From a virus (lineage: Duplodnaviria > Caudoviricetes), in IMG/VR virus record IMGVR_UViG_3300018089_000005, positions 1-24,077 of that record: a DNA stretch of 24,077 bases; one strand, written 5' to 3'. Shown one piece after another: positions 350 to 23,526 of this stretch. Below the pieces are notes generated by a model. The model did no database searches and had not been told where the DNA came from. It saw only the letters and a list, made by a program, of their open reading frames with translations. The translations under genes and the position numbers were made by a program. Position 1 is the stretch's first letter. Every line of letters starts with the position of its first letter.

Positions 350-400
350 GAGAGACGGCCAGCGTGTTTAGAGTACCCTGGCCGTTTCGTTATTGTAGCA
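350..400 (-). promoter_or_regulatory. Repeated antirepressor leader, copy A (extended -10 TGnTACAAT plus ACGGCCAG hairpin)
   Basis: Minus strand TGCTACAATAACGAAACGGCCAGGGTACTCTAAACACGCTGGCCGTCTCTC, near-identical to 1335-1384 except in the hairpin interior. Confidence 0.75.
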
Positions 401-1901: not shown

Positions 1902-2665
1902 CCTACCATCTCCATTTGCCCGTTAACGTTCGGCCAATGTCGCACTTGCATCACAGGAGGCAATATCTCATAAGGAATCTTCCGTCCGAGATCCGTGATC
2001 TGCTTTATGAAAACTGGCGTCTCCGCATCACGGCACTGTTTCAAGATGTCCAATATCCAATCAAAACGGTATGGTCGCGCTTCCGGCCCGGATTCAGTCC
2101 CGACAATGACCCAGCCTAAGCGGCCATCCAGAAAGTTAGTCAGATCGATAGGTCCAAGCAGAGGCTCGGCACTCACGAACCGTAAAGCGGCTGGCGTTTT
2201 AAGGAGTAGCGGGATACGTTCGTCAGCCGTTTCCTGATTCTCCACACTAACGCCCAGCCAAACCGACAGCAGCGGCCAGTTCGAGAAGTGCTTGCGTGAT
2301 ATGATGTAATCCTGCATGCGCTTCGGACGTTTCGTCAGGATTTGAAACGTGTGCTGCGGACAAGAAGACATCACTGCAAACACCCTGTCCAGAAACTCGT
2401 CAGATACATGTTTGTGGAACAAGTCGCTCATGCTGTTGACAAACACGCGGCGCGGTTTTCTCCAGCTCAGAGGCTCTTCCAGCCTATCAACATGACACTG
2501 TACGTCAGTGAATTGACGCCCTTCATAAGGCTGGCCGGGTGCCGCAAGCCGAGGCCATAGGCGCTCTGCGTAACAATTACGACATCCTTTGGACACCTTA
2601 TGGCAGCCCGAGACTGGGTTCCAAACGTATTCACTCCATTCGATTTTTGTTGTACCAGACATCAA
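1898..2665 (-). CDS. DUF5131 / phage Gp37-Gp68 family protein (radical-SAM-like CxxxxxxCxxC)
   Basis: TKIEW...WNPVSGCHKVSKGCRNCYAE...FVNSMSDLFH...FQILTKRP...WLGVSVENQ...RFVSAEPLLGPI. Confidence 0.92.
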   Translation of the reverse strand: MMSGTTKIEWSEYVWNPVSGCHKVSKGCRNCYAERLWPRLAAPGQPYEGRQFTDVQCHVDRLEEPLSWRKPRRVFVNSMSDLFHKHVSDEFLDRVFAVMSSCPQHTFQILTKRPKRMQDYIISRKHFSNWPLLSVWLGVSVENQETADERIPLLLKTPAALRFVSAEPLLGPIDLTNFLDGRLGWVIVGTESGPEARPYRFDWILDILKQCRDAETPVFIKQITDLGRKIPYEILPPVMQVRHWPNVNGQMEMVG

Positions 2666-3180
2666 GCATTACCTCTCTGTAGTTTGTGCAATTCCACGAA
2701 ACTGTAAGGAAAAGAATTCTCTGCATCCGCCGTAAAATCCTCTCGGGCATGGCAAGGCCAATCAATCCCACGAAATGGTGGAAACCAGGTATCTCCGTCA
2801 AAATCGTGCCGTATCAAGGTCAGGTGTATTCGATTGGCATACCTTATGAAGTAGTGATACAAGCTTGCTCCTCCGATCACCATCAGCTCGGTGCCACTAC
2901 GTGCTAGTTCGAGTGCCTCATCGACCGAGTGCAGCGCCTCGCAGCCTGGCGCATTGAAGCCGGGGTCATGAGTCAGCACCAGGTTGATTCTGCCCTTGAG
3001 CGGACCGCCGATGGAATCGAAGGTCTTACGGCCCATTAGCACATGCTCTCCCATGGTCAGTGCGCGGAAACGCCGCATGTCGGCGGGAAGCCGCCATGGC
3101 AGTCGGTTGTCCTTACCTATCACTCGGTTGCTGGACATGGCCGCGACCAGTGACAGCGTTTCGATTGTGTCTTTGCTCAT
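2662..3180 (-). CDS. folA: Dihydrofolate reductase
   Basis: AAMSSNRVIG..N.LPW.LPADM..F...T.G..VLMGRKTF.SIG.PL.GR.NLVLT, VIGGA, FDGDTWFP. Confidence 0.95.
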   Translation of the reverse strand: MSKDTIETLSLVAAMSSNRVIGKDNRLPWRLPADMRRFRALTMGEHVLMGRKTFDSIGGPLKGRINLVLTHDPGFNAPGCEALHSVDEALELARSGTELMVIGGASLYHYFIRYANRIHLTLIRHDFDGDTWFPPFRGIDWPCHAREDFTADAENSFPYSFVELHKLQRGNA

Positions 3181-6963: not shown

Positions 6964-7578
6964 TTAACTGCATTTACTCGCTCCACATGACAAGCACACA
7001 TTGCATCCATCCATCATGACCACTGAGAATTCCTGACACTTGTCACACTGTGCTCCTTTCGGTGCCAGATCCTTGGCTTCCGGCATATCCTTGACCGGAG
7101 CGACCGACACAGGCTGATACAGCCCTAGACCTTCAAGATGCTGCGCCAGCACGTTTCCTATCTCGGCCACAATCGAGGGAACGTACTTGCCGCCCTTCTT
7201 CCAGAAGCCGCCGTTCGGGTCGAATACGCTCTTTAACTCTTCGACCAGGAAAGCCACCTCGCCGCCTTTTCTGAACACCGCCGACATGATGCGTGTCATG
7301 GCAACCACCCACTGGAAGTTGTCCATGTTCTTCGAGTTGATGAAGACCTCAAAGGGACGGCGCACCTCGTGCGGAGTATCATTGTTGAGGATGATATCGT
7401 TGATGGTGACGTAAAGCGCGTGCTCAGAGAGCGGCGTTTTGATCTTGTAAGTCGTTCCCTGCAACTGCTCGGGACGCGCCATCTTCTCGTGCAGTACGTG
7501 TGGCTCTGGGGCTTTTGCTGGGCCGGATTTGTTGCTGACGACTTCTTGTGAGACGATCTTCTGCTCGATTTTGATCAC
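6964..7578 (-). CDS. nrdJb: Class II ribonucleotide reductase C-terminal subunit NrdJb (TSCPD domain plus Zn ribbon)
   Basis: RPE.L.G.TYKIK.P..EHALYVTIND...RPFEVFINSKNM..FQW.VA.TRIMSAVFRKGG...FLVEELK.VFDP.GG...C.KC...DGC..CL.CG.SKC. Confidence 0.88.
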   Translation of the reverse strand: MIKIEQKIVSQEVVSNKSGPAKAPEPHVLHEKMARPEQLQGTTYKIKTPLSEHALYVTINDIILNNDTPHEVRRPFEVFINSKNMDNFQWVVAMTRIMSAVFRKGGEVAFLVEELKSVFDPNGGFWKKGGKYVPSIVAEIGNVLAQHLEGLGLYQPVSVAPVKDMPEAKDLAPKGAQCDKCQEFSVVMMDGCNVCLSCGASKCS

Positions 7579-14154: not shown

Positions 14155-14346
14155 ATGCGTGAGTTGTTTGTAGATGATATCAAGGTCGGTATGCGGGTGA
14201 GATCCCGCTGTCATGTCGAAATGCCCTGGGGCACAGAAGGTGTCATAGAGCGGACCGATCCCACGCTGCCGTATATGGCCTGCGTACTGGGAGATGATGG
14301 CAGACGGCGCTTGCTGTTTGTCTGGGAGATGAGCATCAATGACTAA
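14155..14346 (+). CDS. Small SH3/KOW-like hypothetical protein
   Basis: AGGAG RBS. IKVGMRVR...GTEGVIE. Confidence 0.6.
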   Translation: MRELFVDDIKVGMRVRSRCHVEMPWGTEGVIERTDPTLPYMACVLGDDGRRRLLFVWEMSIND

Positions 14347-14938
14347 GTTGCGGGGGAACGTTGTTAGCTTGGGCCTGTCTGGGCCGCATTTGCACCCAAC
14401 CAAGGAGATGGTCCGTAACCTGTTCGGTTATACACCTCTCACCATCAAGAGAGAGCTTAATTTGGAGGGGCACTGGCTAGCGTGGGAACGCGCGACCATC
14501 GAGGGTCCTGGCGGTTTTCTCTTGGCCGTCGCTATCGTAGGGCCGTGCCGGGAAAGAGCGCAGCTCGAACTGCATGATAGCCATCGTGCCATACTTAGGC
14601 TTCCCAAGCTACCTGAAAGGCAATCCGGGGATCTTGACGGCACGTTTGGCTTCACCGTGGTCGGCCCGCGCGGCGTGGTCAAAGTCAGAAACGGTGCTAT
14701 TATCGGCGCCCCCCACATCCATATACCGGATACATCTCCATGGGCACAGCACACCACTCTCGCTGTGCACGTCATGTCATCCAGCGCAGATTTGTGGTAC
14801 GACGACATGCCTGTCAAGGTCGGCAAGCATACGGCCACAGAGGTGCACCTAGACCGTGAGCAGGCGCTGCTTGCGCTTGGTGCCGGCCCGTATCTCGTAT
14901 CGGCCCACACCACCAAGGAGGAGTCACATGAGCACTGA
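14339..14938 (+). CDS. PduL-like phosphotransacylase (divergent)
   Basis: S..HLH...LFG...L...G...A.E..TI.GP.G....V.IVGP.R...Q.E...R.SGDL.GT.G.T.VGP.G.V....G.I....HIH...VHLD. Confidence 0.8.
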   Translation: MTKLRGNVVSLGLSGPHLHPTKEMVRNLFGYTPLTIKRELNLEGHWLAWERATIEGPGGFLLAVAIVGPCRERAQLELHDSHRAILRLPKLPERQSGDLDGTFGFTVVGPRGVVKVRNGAIIGAPHIHIPDTSPWAQHTTLAVHVMSSSADLWYDDMPVKVGKHTATEVHLDREQALLALGAGPYLVSAHTTKEESHEH

Positions 14939-19610: not shown

Positions 19611-20065
19611 ACAAATCTGATTTTATCGCGCAAGCCCCGAAAGCCGCTATCAAAGCGGGCGCATTGCTGGGTGTCGATCCACTCATCATCGTGGCGCAGG
19701 CGGCCCTGGAGTCAGGATGGGGAGAGCACACGCCAAAGCCCGATAGTGGGCACGGCGAGAGCTACAACTTTTATGGTATTAAAGCCGATAATGGCTGGCG
19801 CGGGCCTACATCTGGTGGGCATTGGACCACTATCCAGGGCAAGTTCCGAGCCTACTCCTCCTTGGAGGCCGGATTTGTTGGATATTCTGAGTTTATTCAC
19901 GATAATCCCAGATATCGCCATGCGCTCGCGGTGGCGGGAGATCCAGAGGCGTATCTCAAGGCGCTGCAACAGGCCGGGTACGCAACCGATCCCGACTACG
20001 CGGCCAAGGTGTTGGCCGTCTGGCGCAAGTTGTCTCAGCATGTGGAGGGCGAAGCTCATGGGTAA
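19607..20065 (+). CDS. GH73 glucosaminidase/muramidase (FlgJ-like)
   Basis: AQAALESGWG, NFYGIKA..GW.G, FRAYSS, NPRY, LQ.AGYATDP.YA.K. Confidence 0.92.
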   Translation: MNKSDFIAQAPKAAIKAGALLGVDPLIIVAQAALESGWGEHTPKPDSGHGESYNFYGIKADNGWRGPTSGGHWTTIQGKFRAYSSLEAGFVGYSEFIHDNPRYRHALAVAGDPEAYLKALQQAGYATDPDYAAKVLAVWRKLSQHVEGEAHG

Positions 20066-20186
20066 GGCAGGGCGTGAGGCGTTCGTAGAGGCACGATTGC
20101 ATGTTAGGAGCGGCCCAGATATGACTGAGGAATATGCGCGCCTCTCAAATCGTCTCATGGCGTGGAGGGTATCATTTCATGGGTAA
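20058..20186 (+). CDS. 42-aa hypothetical protein
   Basis: GGAGGG RBS, MGKAGREAFVE...SFHG*. Fills the gap with overlaps on both sides. Confidence 0.5.
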   Translation: MGKAGREAFVEARLHVRSGPDMTEEYARLSNRLMAWRVSFHG

Positions 20187-20568
20187 GGCGCAGCGTGCGA
20201 AGGGTGCATCAGCCGAGCGTGAACTGGCCGCCCTGTTGAGTGACAGGCTGGGTACACAGGTTAAGCGCCGGCTAGGAGCGGCGCGCGACGGCGGGCACGA
20301 TATCGACGGCGGAATCATGCTGGATGGTGTGGCCTTAGAGGTTAAGCGGCAGGAGAAACCTTCCTTGGGCCTGTGGTGGTCTCAGGCGTGCGATCAGGCT
20401 GTGAGGGCGGCCAAGGTACCAGTCTTGGCTTATCGTGCCTCACGGTGCGCATGGCGCTTCCAGGTTCCGCTGGGCTGGGTGCATGCCGGATTTGATGTCG
20501 CCAATGTCGATATGGTGGTGACTATGGGGCTGGAGGAGTTCTGCGCGGTAGTGAGAGAACGGATGTAA
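20179..20568 (+). CDS. PD-(D/E)XK Holliday-junction-resolvase-like nuclease
   Basis: QRAKGASAERELA.LL...GG.DI...LEVKRQE.....WW.QA...PVLAYR....W. GGAGGG RBS before ATG 20179. Confidence 0.85.
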   Translation: MGKAQRAKGASAERELAALLSDRLGTQVKRRLGAARDGGHDIDGGIMLDGVALEVKRQEKPSLGLWWSQACDQAVRAAKVPVLAYRASRCAWRFQVPLGWVHAGFDVANVDMVVTMGLEEFCAVVRERM

Positions 20569-20921
20569 ACCAACCCCTCACTAAAGTGAGAGGCTTTGCC
20601 AATGGAGCAAATCGCTATGCGATATGCAACTGACATTAGGGATGTTTACAGGCAGATAGGCGTCACGCCGCGTCGCCAGGGGACGTATTTCCATGTCTCC
20701 CAATACCCCTTGCTGGATCGTGCCGAGAGCGCGCCTTCCAGTGGGCGAGCACAGAGACGCTTCGGCTTGCGCCAGCAACCCTCCGTTATTTGTTTCTGTC
20801 CGGCCAGCGGACTGGACATCGACGCAGGGCACGCGCGCCATTTCTATATTTTATCAAAAAACAGGAGGAATTGCGCTCCTCCCCGCCCTGAAGGGTTGGG
20901 TTTCCGCGCAATAAATTGAAG
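20565..20921 (-). mobile_element. Miniature non-autonomous IS200/IS605-type element 1 (357 bp, no tnpA/tnpB)
   Basis: Minus-strand right end AAAG-CCTCTCAC TTTA GTGAGGGG-TTGGTTTAC. Left end TTCAT|N12-GCGCG-GAAA-hairpin. Ends are homologous to 22290-22506. Removal restores an ATGA stop/start overlap. Confidence 0.8.
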
Positions 20922-21185
20922 ATGAACAAGGTTGATCTGAATCTGCTGAAAATCACAGTTCTGACTGAGGTTGCCCAAGTGGTGGACTCTGACGAGCGCT
21001 ATCGCATCCTGGACGCGATGATCATCGCGCTGGATTATCCTGACTCGTGGTGGATTAAGAGGCAGGACATGATATTGAAAAACTGGATTGTTACTCTGCG
21101 AGCAGTGCGTAATCCCGACATGATGCAGCCACAGTCAGACGCAGAGCAGAACGCTGTACTGCATCTTCAGGAGAATCATCGATGA
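20922..21185 (+). CDS. Hypothetical protein
   Basis: ATG at the element boundary. ATGA-coupled to dUTPase. Confidence 0.65.
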   Translation: MNKVDLNLLKITVLTEVAQVVDSDERYRILDAMIIALDYPDSWWIKRQDMILKNWIVTLRAVRNPDMMQPQSDAEQNAVLHLQENHR

Positions 21186-21622
21186 CAGACCAGATACAGG
21201 TAGCGAGGGTAGTAGGGGGAGAGGATCTGCCGCTGCCGCATAAATCGCATCCCGAGGATGCTGGGTTTGATCTGCGCGCGGCTCATGCCGACGTGCTTGC
21301 GCCGGGCGTGGGATGCGTAATGGGGACCGGGTTCTCCTGGCGCATCCCACACGGATGGTACGGCAAGATCGAAGGTCGGTCAGGTATGGCAGCAGCAGGA
21401 GTTATTCCTGTGGGCGGAGTGATAGATAGCGGTTATCAGGGCGAGGTCCAGGTGATCCTGCTTAATCTCGGCGAAGATGTGCACGTCGTGCACCGGGGAG
21501 ATCGGATTGCGCAGATGGTGGTATTACCTATTCACCAGGCAACTGAGGTTGCCTTGGCGGAAGGTAATGGCGCGACATCGTCTCGCGGAGAGGGCAGCTT
21601 TGGCTCCACGGGGGCCAATTAG
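21182..21622 (+). CDS. dut: Trimeric dUTPase
   Basis: Motifs AGFDL, GRSG, GVIDSGYQGE, GDRIAQ, RGEGSFGSTG. Confidence 0.96.
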   Translation: MTDQIQVARVVGGEDLPLPHKSHPEDAGFDLRAAHADVLAPGVGCVMGTGFSWRIPHGWYGKIEGRSGMAAAGVIPVGGVIDSGYQGEVQVILLNLGEDVHVVHRGDRIAQMVVLPIHQATEVALAEGNGATSSRGEGSFGSTGAN

Positions 21623-21676
21623 GGCTATTTTGGGAATCGGTTGCTTGAGCTTGCAAGCTGGCACCGATAGGACAAC

Positions 21677-22135
21677 GTGTGGTTAGTTAAGGAGGCATTT
21701 GTGATTATCGGGTATATCCATTATCGCTGTATGGCATGGTCCGCTCAGGGACAACGTGACAAGGACGGAGGCACGGGTTATCCGCGCCAGAGTATCTATT
21801 GCCGGGCCTATGATCCTGGACATGTATGGGACGAGTCGAATCCGCACGCCATACCGCTGCTCATTGAGGTGGAGTGGTGGGAGATGGAGAGCGCTATACA
21901 GTCTCTCCCTGATCATCTGCGAGCCGTGGTGCGTGTGATGTACCTACAGCATGACACTGTGACTGCAAAGGCAAAGCAATTGCATATTTGTAGAGGCACG
22001 TTGTTTAACCGGCTGGGTGCGGCGCATGCCCAGATTATGGATTATTTGCTGGATCACTCGACCAAAACGCCTAAGCAGGCGAAGGAGCCTGTTGTATGGA
22101 GGTTGCAAAGCTCTGAGCACAAGATGACAACGTAG
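21677..22135 (+). CDS. Q-like antiterminator / sigma-region-4-type late regulator
   Basis: W...G.GYP...AI.SLP.HLR.VV...YL......KA..L.I.R.TLF.RL..AH. Last gene of the right early operon. True start may be GTG 21701 (AAGGAGG upstream). Confidence 0.7.
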   Translation: MWLVKEAFVIIGYIHYRCMAWSAQGQRDKDGGTGYPRQSIYCRAYDPGHVWDESNPHAIPLLIEVEWWEMESAIQSLPDHLRAVVRVMYLQHDTVTAKAKQLHICRGTLFNRLGAAHAQIMDYLLDHSTKTPKQAKEPVVWRLQSSEHKMTT

Positions 22136-22145
22136 GCGTAGTACA

Positions 22146-22180
22146 AGCGCAGTACAGAACTAGCGATCCTGTACTGCGCT
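22146..22180. terminator. 12-bp stem-loop after Q-like gene
   Basis: AGCGCAGTACAG-N11-CTGTACTGCGCT. No strong U tract. Confidence 0.45.
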
Positions 22181-22200
22181 AAATTATTGTTCTAAAGCTA

Positions 22201-22229
22201 TTGACATGCTTATAAGATGAGCATATTTT
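22201..22229 (+). promoter_or_regulatory. Putative sigma70 promoter with palindromic spacer
   Basis: TTGACA-N17-TATTTT. Inverted repeat ATGCTTAT-AAG-ATGAGCAT overlaps the spacer. Confidence 0.55.
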
Positions 22230-22289
22230 ATAGTTGTGTAGTGAGCGAGCCGGGCGCTTACCCGGCACCCCAATCTAAAGAGACCTGAG

Positions 22290-22506
22290 GTCAATAACCC
22301 CTCCCTAAAGGGAGGGGCTTGTGGATTGGAAGGCCAAAACGTTGACTAGCCTGTGGCAACCGGAAAACGCCTGACGTAACAGGTCAAGCATTCAGATTGC
22401 CGGTTCTTAACCTTTAGCGCGTGGAGATTCCACGCCGCTTAACAAACAGGAGGAATCGCGCTCCTACCCTACCTGAAGGAAGGGGTATCCGCGCGATAGA
22501 TCGACG
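22290..22506 (-). mobile_element. Miniature non-autonomous IS200/IS605-type element 2 (217 bp; HEARO/omegaRNA-like end)
   Basis: Plus strand GTCAATAACCCCTCCCTAAAGGGAGGGGCTTG...GTTGACTAGCC. Other end AGGAGGAATCGCGCTCCTACCCTACCTGAAGGAAGGGGTATCCGCGC-N12|GTGAA. Confidence 0.82.
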
Positions 22507-22851
22507 GTGAATGATACCAGGCCGAAACGGATTCAGTTAAGTCGCAAGCTTGGATGGCGCAAGCCAGCAGGCGCTATTGTAGTCTCCAGACCTAGCAGAT
22601 GGGGAAACCCGCATCCAATTGGTCGGGTATGCCCACACTGCGGAGGTTGCCCGACGCACCTTCGTGTTGAAGCATTTGAGCAGTTTCGCCTAGATATGCT
22701 GCAAAAGCGAGCTGACGATGCCATAGGATTGGCTCGATGGCTTTCCCCCCTGAAAGGCCATGACTTGGCATGCTGGTGTCCACTACCAAAGACTGGAGAG
22801 GTGGACCACTGCCATGCGTCAATATTGTTGCAAATGGCAAATAACGATTAG
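22507..22851 (+). CDS. DUF4326-family protein
   Basis: PKRIQLSR..GWRKP.GAI.VSRPSRWGNP...LKG.DLACWCP......CHA.ILL..AN. Confidence 0.88.
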   Translation: MNDTRPKRIQLSRKLGWRKPAGAIVVSRPSRWGNPHPIGRVCPHCGGCPTHLRVEAFEQFRLDMLQKRADDAIGLARWLSPLKGHDLACWCPLPKTGEVDHCHASILLQMANND

Positions 22852-22860
22852 TGATGGTAG

Positions 22861-23526
22861 ATGTCTTTGCCAATGGAGCAAATCGCTATGCGATGTGCCA
22901 GATATGTGACACTCGGAACAGGTCAGCAGATCGGTCTAGGACAGTACGTCTCGGCCATTAAGCTAGCCAAAGATAACAGAGATCATATCTTCGAGCCAGG
23001 TCTAGCAAGCGGGTGGCCGGCGACCGGAGAAGAGATTGTGCAAGAATTCCGCCGTGGCGTGCAGGATCGGATCAATTTGCGTGGCAGAATAAATGTGCGT
23101 GCTCTCAAACCTATGTCTGAGGATCGCAAATATCGGCATTTGGCGCGTACTCAGGAATGCCAATGCCGAATGTGCGGTGCTTCTATCTCGTGGAGGCCAA
23201 TGCACGGGCGGTTCTGCGATGCGTGCTGTCGCACGCGCATGCGTATAAACCCTCGCGCTACGTATCTGGACGCTTTGTTGCGCATCATCGTGCGCTTGGC
23301 TGAGGGGCCGGCCACCTCTGGAGAGCTGATGAAGGTCGCCGGCAGATCCCGCGCGACGCTGACGCGGGAGATACGGGATGCCAAGGATTTGGGAGTGGTG
23401 ATTGGGATACGTGGGCATAAGCATTATGAGATGGTCGATGCTGGGATCTTTGATCTCCCCAGGTTGCGCGAGTGGGCGGAAAGGCGCGACCAGCAGAAAG
23501 CTAATGGAGAAGAATGCTACACCTAA
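22861..23526 (+). CDS. Hypothetical phage protein with Zn-finger and C-terminal HTH (possibly a fusion)
   Basis: CRMCG...RFCDACC, then LAEGPATSGELMKVAGRSRATLTREI. A likely start is ATG 22888 behind GGAG. Confidence 0.65.
   Translation: MSLPMEQIAMRCARYVTLGTGQQIGLGQYVSAIKLAKDNRDHIFEPGLASGWPATGEEIVQEFRRGVQDRINLRGRINVRALKPMSEDRKYRHLARTQECQCRMCGASISWRPMHGRFCDACCRTRMRINPRATYLDALLRIIVRLAEGPATSGELMKVAGRSRATLTREIRDAKDLGVVIGIRGHKHYEMVDAGIFDLPRLREWAERRDQQKANGEECYT

Follow-up and report, generated by a model that had tools for sequence, protein, structure and literature searches.

Protein-less members of the IS200/IS605 family, termed PATEs, have been described in Haloquadratum (PMC3119063) and, as the ISGst PATEs, in Geobacillus stearothermophilus (bioRxiv 10.1101/2023.03.14.532601). 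In the latter work, Meers et al. report that PATEs often encode omegaRNAs needing TnpB in trans, and an ISGst IscB element with a TTCAT motif. Among gene-bearing relatives, the ISC (IscB) and IS605B (TnpB-only) elements have one terminus in common, in opposite orientation, and share an N/ATGA target; ISC1-1_MA, IS605B-1_MA, ISC2-1_HM and ISC2-1_MS are inserted 5' of ATGA and start with 5'-GT (PMC4810608). Target choice in the IS200/IS605 family follows the principle that a guide tetranucleotide is complementary to the cleavage motif (PMC8266576).

We analysed a stretch of 24,077 nucleotides (the window), a 24-kb phage fragment whose source contig is ~35% complete. It carries two gene-less IS200/IS605 elements, E1 and E2 (Table 1), which are PATE-like members of this described class; for PATE guide RNAs, use in trans has already been proposed in print. 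Like PATEs, both lack a TnpA, TnpB or IscB reading frame, have subterminal hairpins at both ends, cause no target duplication, share their ends with gene-bearing elements and hold omegaRNA sequence in the right end. Like the ISC and IS605B elements, they start with 5'-GT, share one terminus in opposite orientation and lie at this type of target; the left end of E2 adjoins the TTCAT motif class of the ISGst IscB element. In contrast to the PATEs, their carrier is a phage, the end of E1 is the rare GTTTAC and both scaffolds look incomplete; unlike ISC and IS605B elements they encode no nuclease, and the flank of E2 is GTGA. What is added here is a clean phage example in which a single genome holds a TnpB-derived and an IscB-derived PATE sharing their left end, together with a filled and empty site pair for E1.

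Results

Two gene-less elements at start codons

A sequence-only reading had proposed that the window holds two gene-less IS200/IS605 elements targeting start codons. This identification holds: the elements share a left end, adjoin the ATGA-type target and contain no transposase or nuclease gene in Pfam, PHROG and TnpB-profile searches, the open reading frames inside E1 belonging to no family. Subterminal palindromes are found at both ends of E1 and E2, and terminal inverted repeats are absent. Over 64 nt, the two left ends show 81% identity (E 1e-12), with a two-sided change in the outer stem. As had been described, both elements terminate in CCGCGC-N12, followed by ATGAA (20922, E1) or GTGAA (22507, E2). 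Counting both strands, RTGAA is present at 76 of the window's 48,154 positions, so two such junctions at equal spacing are not chance. A fixed 4-5 nt target adjoins the left end, which for E2, with its GTGAA, is judged by analogy only, as are the E2 boundaries, since the left junction could equally be placed 4 nt later, with N16 preceding ATGAT. Removal of E1 in silico gives CGG ATA TGA, in agreement with the earlier reading.

Related left ends behave in the same way. All 12 in our set adjoin ATGA; for genome loci with this left end the count is 10/10, eight of these being at ATGAA and six at the N12 spacing. These genome loci carry IscB, TnpB or no gene, the pattern being common to IscB loci (L016, L017, L024) and TnpB loci (L045, L021). 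The start-codon placement of E1 and E2 is accounted for by the published N/ATGA target of the group.

Table 1 Features of E1, E2 and their surroundings in the window
Feature	Position	Strand	Remark
Dihydrofolate reductase (DHFR) gene, start ATGAG	2662..3180	-	Empty orthologue of the L013 E1 site
RusA-like resolvase gene upstream of E1	20176..20568	+	Equal length with or without element
Flank, would-be TnpB guide of E1	20545..20564	-	No other window match at <=3 mismatches in 14
E1, TnpB-type gene-less IS200/IS605 element, 357 nt	20565..20921	- (TnpA-sense)	88.5% copy in L013
E1 right end: TTAC 20565-68, hairpin 20574-93, guide AAAG 20594-97	20565..20597	-	Sequence
E1 TnpB-type reRNA part: inner GTAAAC (20644-49), then V-N-x-P-N-V motif, variable stem with minus-strand G.U pairs	20598..20649	-	Flanking stem-1 arm absent
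Frame free of stops over 105 codons across E1, opening at SD-linked ATGs 20602 and 20617, TGA two bases before next gene's ATG	20602..20919	+	Predicted; no homologue
Extended -10-like motif TG-N-TAAAAT in E1 left end, directed into element	20848..20856	-	By eye; absent from promoter scan's list; identical in L013 copy
E1 left end: outer stem, hairpin 20881-20900, guide GAAA 20901-04, 12-nt tail	20856..20921	-	
E1 target: ATGAA, which reads TTCAT on minus and starts an 87-aa gene	20922..20926	+	No known family
Sigma-70-like promoter (10/12), ~60 nt upstream of E2	22201..22229	+	Predicted to transcribe flank and omegaRNA 5' module
Flank, would-be IscB guide of E2	22270..22289	+	Best other window matches: 3 mismatches in 14
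E2, IscB-type gene-less IS200/IS605 element, 217 nt	22290..22506	+	
E2 omegaRNA 5' module with a GTCAA..GTTGAC stem, the hairpin of the right end (22298-317), minus-strand guide CAAG (22318-21) and the TAGCC also present in IscB locus L016	22290..22351	+	Rfam HEARO
E2 interior: three hairpins, HEARO core motifs absent	22352..22440	.	Longest folds better on minus (18 pairs, 4 G.U)
E2 left end: hairpin, guide GATA (22486-89), 12-nt tail	22441..22506	-	
E2 target GTGAA, start of DUF4326 gene (22507-22851)	22507..22511	+	One mismatch to GATA guide
33/34 copy of E1 20594-20627	22865..22898	+	Gives SD and ATG (22888) to following phage gene

We compared the guide tetranucleotides with their cleavage motifs. 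At both ends of E1 and at the right end of E2 the two are complementary at guide positions 1, 2 and 4; at the left end of E2, position 4 fails against GTGAA. The imperfect fit of E2 to the left-end rule noted earlier is therefore correct, with one refinement: GATA accompanies ATGAA in 5 loci from 3 genomes, a defective guide is rejected, and the odd part is E2's GTGAA. At the right ends the pairs are AAAG/TTAC in E1 and CAAG/TGAC in E2. In IS608, guide AAAG pairs with TTAC. CAAG/TGAC is found in all six loci compared, so it is E1 that was altered on both sides, which bears out the compensatory change noted previously; a separate count of 19/19 for this pair arises from the search pattern itself and was set aside. 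The inner partner in E1 is altered as well (GTAAAC) and matches the GTTTAC end.

A second copy of E1

Another metagenome contig, L013, contains an 88.5% identical copy of E1 with the same ends, located where a DHFR gene starts with ATGAA, and fixes the E1 boundaries independently. Comparison of the two sites reveals ATGAA at both and otherwise unrelated flanks, and the window's own DHFR gene is without the element. Thus, E1 has moved. The copies differ at 41 columns, 34 of these within the first 115 nt, while the gene-less interior shows 7 differences in 242 nt; ~200 nt of the E1 interior have no known source. The L013-type junction was also found in run X2, which may be the same sample as L013.

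Further copies were not recovered. Viral contigs gave 0 loci each for further E1/E2 left ends, the E1 right end and the E1 inner motif. Eight candidate loci in metagenome contigs comprised two from the window's own record, the real copy in L013 and five chance matches without hairpins. Plasmid and phage BLAST returned short end matches at most, or nothing. No second copy of E2 was found in the viral, metagenome, plasmid or phage searches.

Guide-RNA scaffolds of E1 and E2

The earlier reading likened one element end to a TnpB reRNA and the other to an IscB omegaRNA, and this distinction is retained. E1 and E2 are probably of separate origins, E1 being TnpB-type and E2 IscB-type. The minus strand of E1 resembles the TnpB omegaRNA of ISDra2 (PMC10097598) and the V-N-Q-P-I-V TnpB ends L029-L060, with a pseudoknot pair between the 3' end and the inner partner, then the motif, the variable stem and the terminal hairpin in equal order. 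It differs in that the 5' arm of stem 1 does not adjoin the inner partner and in that the end is GTTTAC, not GTTGAC. Stem 1 around the inner partner has 2/5 pairs in E1, compared with 5/5 in 26 of 29 comparable loci, and the three loci without a fully paired stem 1 are all gene-less. Its pairing probability is 0.0 in the L013 copy and 0.99-1.0 in L045 and L053; in E1 alone, the arm can find an alternative pairing 56-60 nt upstream (probability 0.84-0.98). A TnpB-end model gave 20.3 and 25.2 bits (E1 at 20.3) compared with 36.9-82.7 for 10 TnpB-type loci outside the model, and since E2 reaches 27.2 via the shared hairpins the model does not separate E1 from E2. The TnpB reference set was chosen by a motif and all its ends are GTTGAC, so that a divergent scaffold class could be missed. 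A TnpB profile built from 16 frames, one of which (L059) has no Pfam match, picked up in E1 only a non-significant V-N-x-P-N-V piece. Assignment of E1 to the IscB type was rejected, there being no HEARO match in E1 or the L013 copy and the bases after GTTTAC differing between the two.

E2 was compared with the HEARO or IscB omegaRNA (RF02033). The first 62 nt match its 5' stem, right-end hairpin and TTGAC-TAGCC junction, while the central multi-stem core and the 3' pseudoknot strand are absent, the core motifs being present in L016. The model check suggested earlier thus returned a partial match, of 29.8 bits (E 0.0012, gathering cut-off 83) with 135/211 model positions skipped, whereas full IscB loci score 62-125 bits. 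Rfam at gathering level gave 0 matches in the whole window. A promoter scan yielded 2 sites against 2.5 expected in shuffles, so the position of the candidate upstream of E2 is the sole argument for it.

Partners and empty alleles

The proposed search for autonomous tnpA, tnpB or iscB partners did not yield a cognate in the contig, the viral contigs or 401 genomes. The contig contains no Y1_Tnp or TnpB family match, and tblastn queries from three IscB proteins detected no IscB in it; the left-end pattern occurs in 0/401 Gammaproteobacteria-class genomes, with no cognate TnpA identified, and searches of viral contigs for a TnpB element bearing the E1 end or inner motif gave 0 hits. An NrdJb-like phage protein has matches in 129/301 Gammaproteobacteria-class genomes at ~55-72% identity, none of them close.

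Exact empty alleles, the other proposed check, were not obtained for the E1 or the E2 site: resolvase relatives are only 43-45% identical (3 loci) and there are none for gene 20922, with which an atlas search brought up nothing of use. Run X2 contains relatives of the flanking genes without the elements. The gene after E1 has another upstream neighbour there, and 283 nt stand in place of 22286-22899. Within the window, trans targets of the E1 and E2 guides are no better than 3 mismatches in 14.

E1 and translation of the neighboring genes

On the plus strand, the GTAA of the E1 end provides the upstream resolvase gene with its TAA stop. The upstream stop codon is replaced by the E1 end at 2/2 sites, with both upstream proteins unchanged in length. 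The predicted frame through E1 ends TGA-AG-ATG. Neither element is an RBS donor to the next gene, a role we rejected because there is no SD at 20922, 22507 or the L013 DHFR gene.

These features could mean that the phage retains E1 as a translation relay or regulator, in which the stop is restored, ribosomes re-initiate at the element's own SD-linked ATGs and are handed over to the next start, and the minus-strand transcript acts as an antisense RNA against the start region of 34 nt at 22865. In the L013 copy, too, the frame stays open despite an indel of 15 nt, 3/8 full TnpB elements are 94-97% stop-free on the same strand, and the 33/34 match falls on a gene start. However, some stop-free frame arises in 180/2000 shuffles, the L013 copy has no ATG for it, the open reading frame matches nothing but itself, a stop follows 5 codons on in any case when the end is the canonical GTCA (E2 frame) and the orthologous sites of relatives lack E1. 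We regard a role of this kind as improbable.

Discussion

We propose that E1 and E2 are protein-less elements at RTGAA start codons that are probably moved by a host Y1 transposase (TnpA) acting in trans and have probably ceased to be working guide RNAs. The host TnpA would read the end hairpins and pair the guide tetranucleotides with TCAT and with TTAC or TGAC, giving peel-and-paste movement. A TnpB element and an IscB element, both with this left end, are the probable ancestors of E1 and E2, respectively. With ATGA as the target and insertions inside genes purged, those at start codons would be the ones to persist. By restoring the upstream stop, the GTAA end would make E1 well tolerated in ATGA overlaps, as would the open plus-strand frame, which may pass ribosomes to the next gene. 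E2 would be older and probably stuck, its target ATG having turned into GTG.

The sequence-only reading had gone further, in proposing working orphan guide loci, and this is so far without support. In such a system, E1 minus-strand RNA, transcribed from the -10 motif, would load a divergent GTTTAC-class host TnpB, or E2 RNA would load IscB or IsrB, and the complex would cut element-free alleles in co-infecting relatives, resulting in homing. E1 shows signs of RNA-level constraint that count against the loss of a working guide: the inner partner and end have changed together (GTAAAC/GTTTAC) in a triple coordinated change at the right end, and the variable stem is paired in both copies, with G.U pairs on the minus strand, despite the concentration of differences in this region. 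Promoter-like motifs are suitably placed, Meers et al. expect trans use of PATE omegaRNAs, and run X2 holds relatives of these genes that lack the elements. The gaps in the scaffolds, stem 1 being absent in the usual register from both E1 copies and the HEARO core from E2, disfavor this role; moreover, the viral contigs yielded no TnpB element that has the end or the inner motif of E1, and with a different upstream neighbor in X2 the E1 guide would not match there. We therefore consider working guides unlikely.

A combination of these ideas would make E1 a translation-neutral, RNA-only selfish element in the ATGA overlaps of a phage population, which rebuilds the stop, relays ribosomes and produces a TnpB guide of non-canonical form, with a GTTTAC end and without an adjacent stem 1, for a host TnpB that cuts element-free sister phages, the same RNA being antisense to the start of a phage gene that 34 nt of E1 have overwritten; to this we give less credence than to either of its parts. 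Least probable of all is that both are dead relics, which came as full TnpB and IscB elements, underwent gene loss where they stand and have since then spread through phage recombination alone: E2 is a single copy with a mismatched target, the E1 right end is mosaic and PATE core deletions via repeats have been described (PMC3119063), but the same gene-less interior at two unrelated sites with exact ends means that E1 moved after gene loss, leaving this explanation to E2.

The idea that RNA-only elements home between phages has been put forward, and we found no test of it in the literature searched. The altered scaffold of E1 would carry greater weight if it still guides a nuclease, and E1 with its two junctions would provide a ready substrate.

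E1 and E2 are protein-less IS200/IS605 elements

E1 and E2 lie in a phage operon encoding an endolysin, a RusA-like resolvase, an 87-aa gene without known family, a dUTPase, a sigma-like gene and DUF4326. The window is a complete 24,077-base virus record, estimated by CheckV at ~35% completeness. Its sequence is contained in full in one peat metagenome run, possibly its source, and relatives are present in a second. The sequence-only reading delimited both elements, placed CCGCGC-N12 ahead of RTGAA start codons, and noted that taking E1 out restores an ATGA stop/start overlap, all of which our analysis confirmed, with ATGAA behind E1 and GTGAA behind E2. RTGAA occurs at 76 of 48,154 positions in the window. 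Identity is 81% between the two left ends (64 nt) and 88% between the right-end hairpins (25 nt).

Altae-Tran et al. reportedly found stand-alone omegaRNAs in 2021. E1 and E2 are real elements of the protein-less (PATE) kind, which has already been described: in Haloquadratum (PMC3119063) and in Geobacillus, where, according to Meers et al., PATEs often encode omegaRNAs that require TnpB in trans (bioRxiv 10.1101/2023.03.14.532601). In the available portions of PMC13565253 and bioRxiv 10.64898/2026.02.14.705889, RNA-only homing in phages is not put to the test. Further gene-less elements of like build (~150-400 nt, with TnpB-type right ends) occur in a Chloroflexia genome and in phage contigs besides this one; the left-end hairpin of one, L047, is 94% like that of E1, and stem 1 is weakened in three.

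Family searches of the contig returned no Y1 transposase or TnpB, with positive controls matching in 6/14 and 8/14 genomes. A tblastn of the window with three IscB, four TnpB and one TnpA frames from fetched loci gave a best E of 0.012. The phage also carries DHFR, dUTPase and MT-A70 methylase genes. Both gene starts at the short duplicated segments read M-G-K-A, suggesting a putative old local duplication.

Positions of the elements, repeats and neighboring features
Feature	Sequence	Positions	Remarks
E1	window	20565-20921	357 nt
E2	window	22290-22506	217 nt
34-nt repeat	window	20594-20627 (E1); 22865-22898	33/34 identical, E 3.5e-9
E2 interior hairpin	window	22355-22405	18 pairs, 4 G.U on minus strand
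Slot after sigma-70-like promoter	window	22201-22900	variable among relatives
Short duplicated segments	window	20026-20076; 20146-20197	120-nt spacing; around two successive gene starts
Leader repeat	window	350-400; 1335-1384	51 nt, 90% identical, upstream of Rha and antirepressor-like genes
PduL/PTAC phosphate propanoyltransferase	window	14339-14938	PF06130, E 2.6e-30
TSCPD (NrdJb-like) gene	window	6964-7578	
TnpB element	L029	1674-2990	at a gene's ATGA start
Gene-less element	L043	1674-2030	
Gene-less element	L055	1410-1768	
Gene-less element	L047	1360-1770	
Gene-less element	L038	1430-1770	
Gene-less element	L023	1868-2253	
Gene-less element	L056	1674-1830	

A TnpB-type and an IscB-type end

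We fetched 34 viral loci using a pattern that combined the motif adjoining the E1 inner partner with the common GTTGAC-type end; 29 had a proper right end and five were chance matches. A TnpB C-terminus finishing in V-N-Q-P-I-V or alike is present in ~20 of the fetched loci and IscB in none, and Pfam confirmed 3/4 frames tested. E1 and its copy in the metagenome contig L013 read V-N-I/V-P-N-V here. The motif was full in one and partial in two of three TnpB loci picked independently of it, and absent from two IscB loci and E2. E2 matches HEARO, the Rfam model of IscB omegaRNA (E 0.0012), and has TTGAC-TAGCC in common with the IscB locus L016. Judged by the V-N-x-P-x-V motif and the HEARO and TTGAC-TAGCC matches, E1 appears to be of TnpB type (minus strand) and E2 of IscB type (plus strand), in line with the earlier likening of one end to a TnpB reRNA and one to an IscB omegaRNA. 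With a covariance model built from 19 TnpB ends, the types were left unseparated (E1, 20.3 bits; L013 copy, 25.2; E2, 27.2), so the split rests on the motifs.

The guide-RNA scaffolds appear incomplete

In ISDra2, the pairing partner of the 3' end sits in the loop of stem 1, and stem 1 is bound by TnpB (PMC10097598). The equivalent stem has 5/5 pairs, with varied letters, in 26/29 loci, the other three being gene-less, and retains 2/5 pairs in E1. The pairing probability of its arm is 0.0 in the L013 copy versus 0.99-1.0 in the TnpB-type loci L045 and L053, and the E1 arm is able to pair only 56-60 nt upstream. Plain decay of E1 is countered by a covaried pseudoknot pair and by a variable stem whose pairing, which includes minus-strand G.U pairs, is kept in both copies. 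The proposed omegaRNA match of E2 was found, and its alignment skips 135/211 HEARO positions. The core motifs are absent from E2, and three IscB loci score 62-125 bits with HEARO. Would-be E1 and E2 guides had no other match in the window beyond their own flanks. We consider it improbable that E1 and E2 are working orphan guides. The E2 interior hairpin folds at -22.8 kcal/mol on the minus strand, opposite to that of the omegaRNA module, versus -15.3 on the plus.

Guide tetranucleotides

The right-end pairs in the sequence-only reading, AAAG/TTAC in E1 and CAAG/TGAC in E2, are present. CAAG/TGAC is found in 6/6 comparison loci, from which both E1 copies differ, having AAAG/TTAC with the inner partner GTAAAC. 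In IS608, guide AAAG likewise pairs with TTAC. Which sites are cleaved is decided by the guides lying 5' of the hairpins (PMC8266576; Meers et al., bioRxiv 10.1101/2023.03.14.532601). Of the left ends flanked by ATGA, 13/13 fit at guide positions 1, 2 and 4, and 7/13 at position 3; since the target is constant, this is consistency, not covariation. The imperfect fit claimed for GATA/TCAC in E2 is real, but GATA itself is ordinary: it goes with ATGAA in five loci from three genomes, and the misfit therefore lies in GTGAA. The simplest reading is that ATG may have changed to GTG after insertion. The guide fits ATGAT too, with the boundary set 4 nt later, but in the empty site DUF4326 would then be start-less.

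Mobility of E1

A metagenome contig scan gave eight loci, one of them L013, whose E1 copy is 88.5% identical. The copy has base for base the ends of E1, lies between unrelated flanks, and is again inserted at ATGAA, in this case where a DHFR gene starts. The DHFR region of the window, 80% identical to that of L013, starts ATGAG and has no insertion. Among the loose ends listed for peat run X2 (12/25), one shows the DHFR junction as in L013, with which X2 may share a sample; X2 also has an orthologue of the 87-aa gene without the element and with a different upstream neighbor. These comparisons indicate that E1 is mobile. Between the two copies, 7/242 interior positions differ, so E1 moved after losing its gene, and 34/41 differing columns fall within the first 115 nt, which suggests that its right end was swapped. 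No second copy of E2 was found.

Insertion at start codons and fit into the operon

A left-end pattern search of 185,579 genomes gave 10 loci. ATGA follows the left end in 10/10 and ATGAA in 8/10; the spacing is exactly N12 in 6/10, the remaining spacings (9, 13, 15, 16) being chosen post hoc. Cargo was IscB in L016, L017 and L024 (Pfam), HNH only in L022, TnpB in L021 and no gene in L023. Kapitonov et al. (PMC4810608) report N|ATGA as the target of IscB as well as TnpB elements that have one terminus in common. By reading, ~11/76 RTGAA sites in the window resemble gene starts, and 3/3 insertions (E1, E2, L013 copy) are at start codons. Loss of insertions that fell inside genes would be a simple explanation. 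A literature search on such placement returned only an unrelated paper. The gene behind the L029 TnpB element appears DUF4326-like by eye.

The GTAA end of E1 converts the upstream A-TGA to G-TAA, which leaves the length of the upstream protein unchanged at each of the two E1 sites. No SD precedes the downstream start codon at the three filled sites (E1, E2, L013). The E1 plus strand has a 105-codon frame with two SD-linked ATGs and a stop two bases ahead of the next ATG; in the L013 copy the same frame is open, without an ATG. Some stop-free frame arose in 180/2000 shuffles, and 3/8 full TnpB elements (L045, L059, L060) are 94-97% stop-free in one opposite-strand frame, the other five not. 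A putative role of the E1 frame as a translation relay is possible.

The slot behind the sigma-70-like promoter differs among relatives: an X1 contig (the other run compared) diverges past 22280 into a different gene start, and in an X2 contig 22286-22899 (E2, DUF4326 and the 34-nt copy) is replaced by 283 other bases. The 34-nt repeat begins at the E1 guide tetranucleotide; within E1 it belongs to the variable stem, with a 3' half similar to the loop in L013 (134/10,000 shuffles). The X2 relative aligns from 22900 onward only. The downstream copy supplies the SD and ATG of a phage gene whose one homologue starts three residues later, and we infer that copying probably ran from element to phage.
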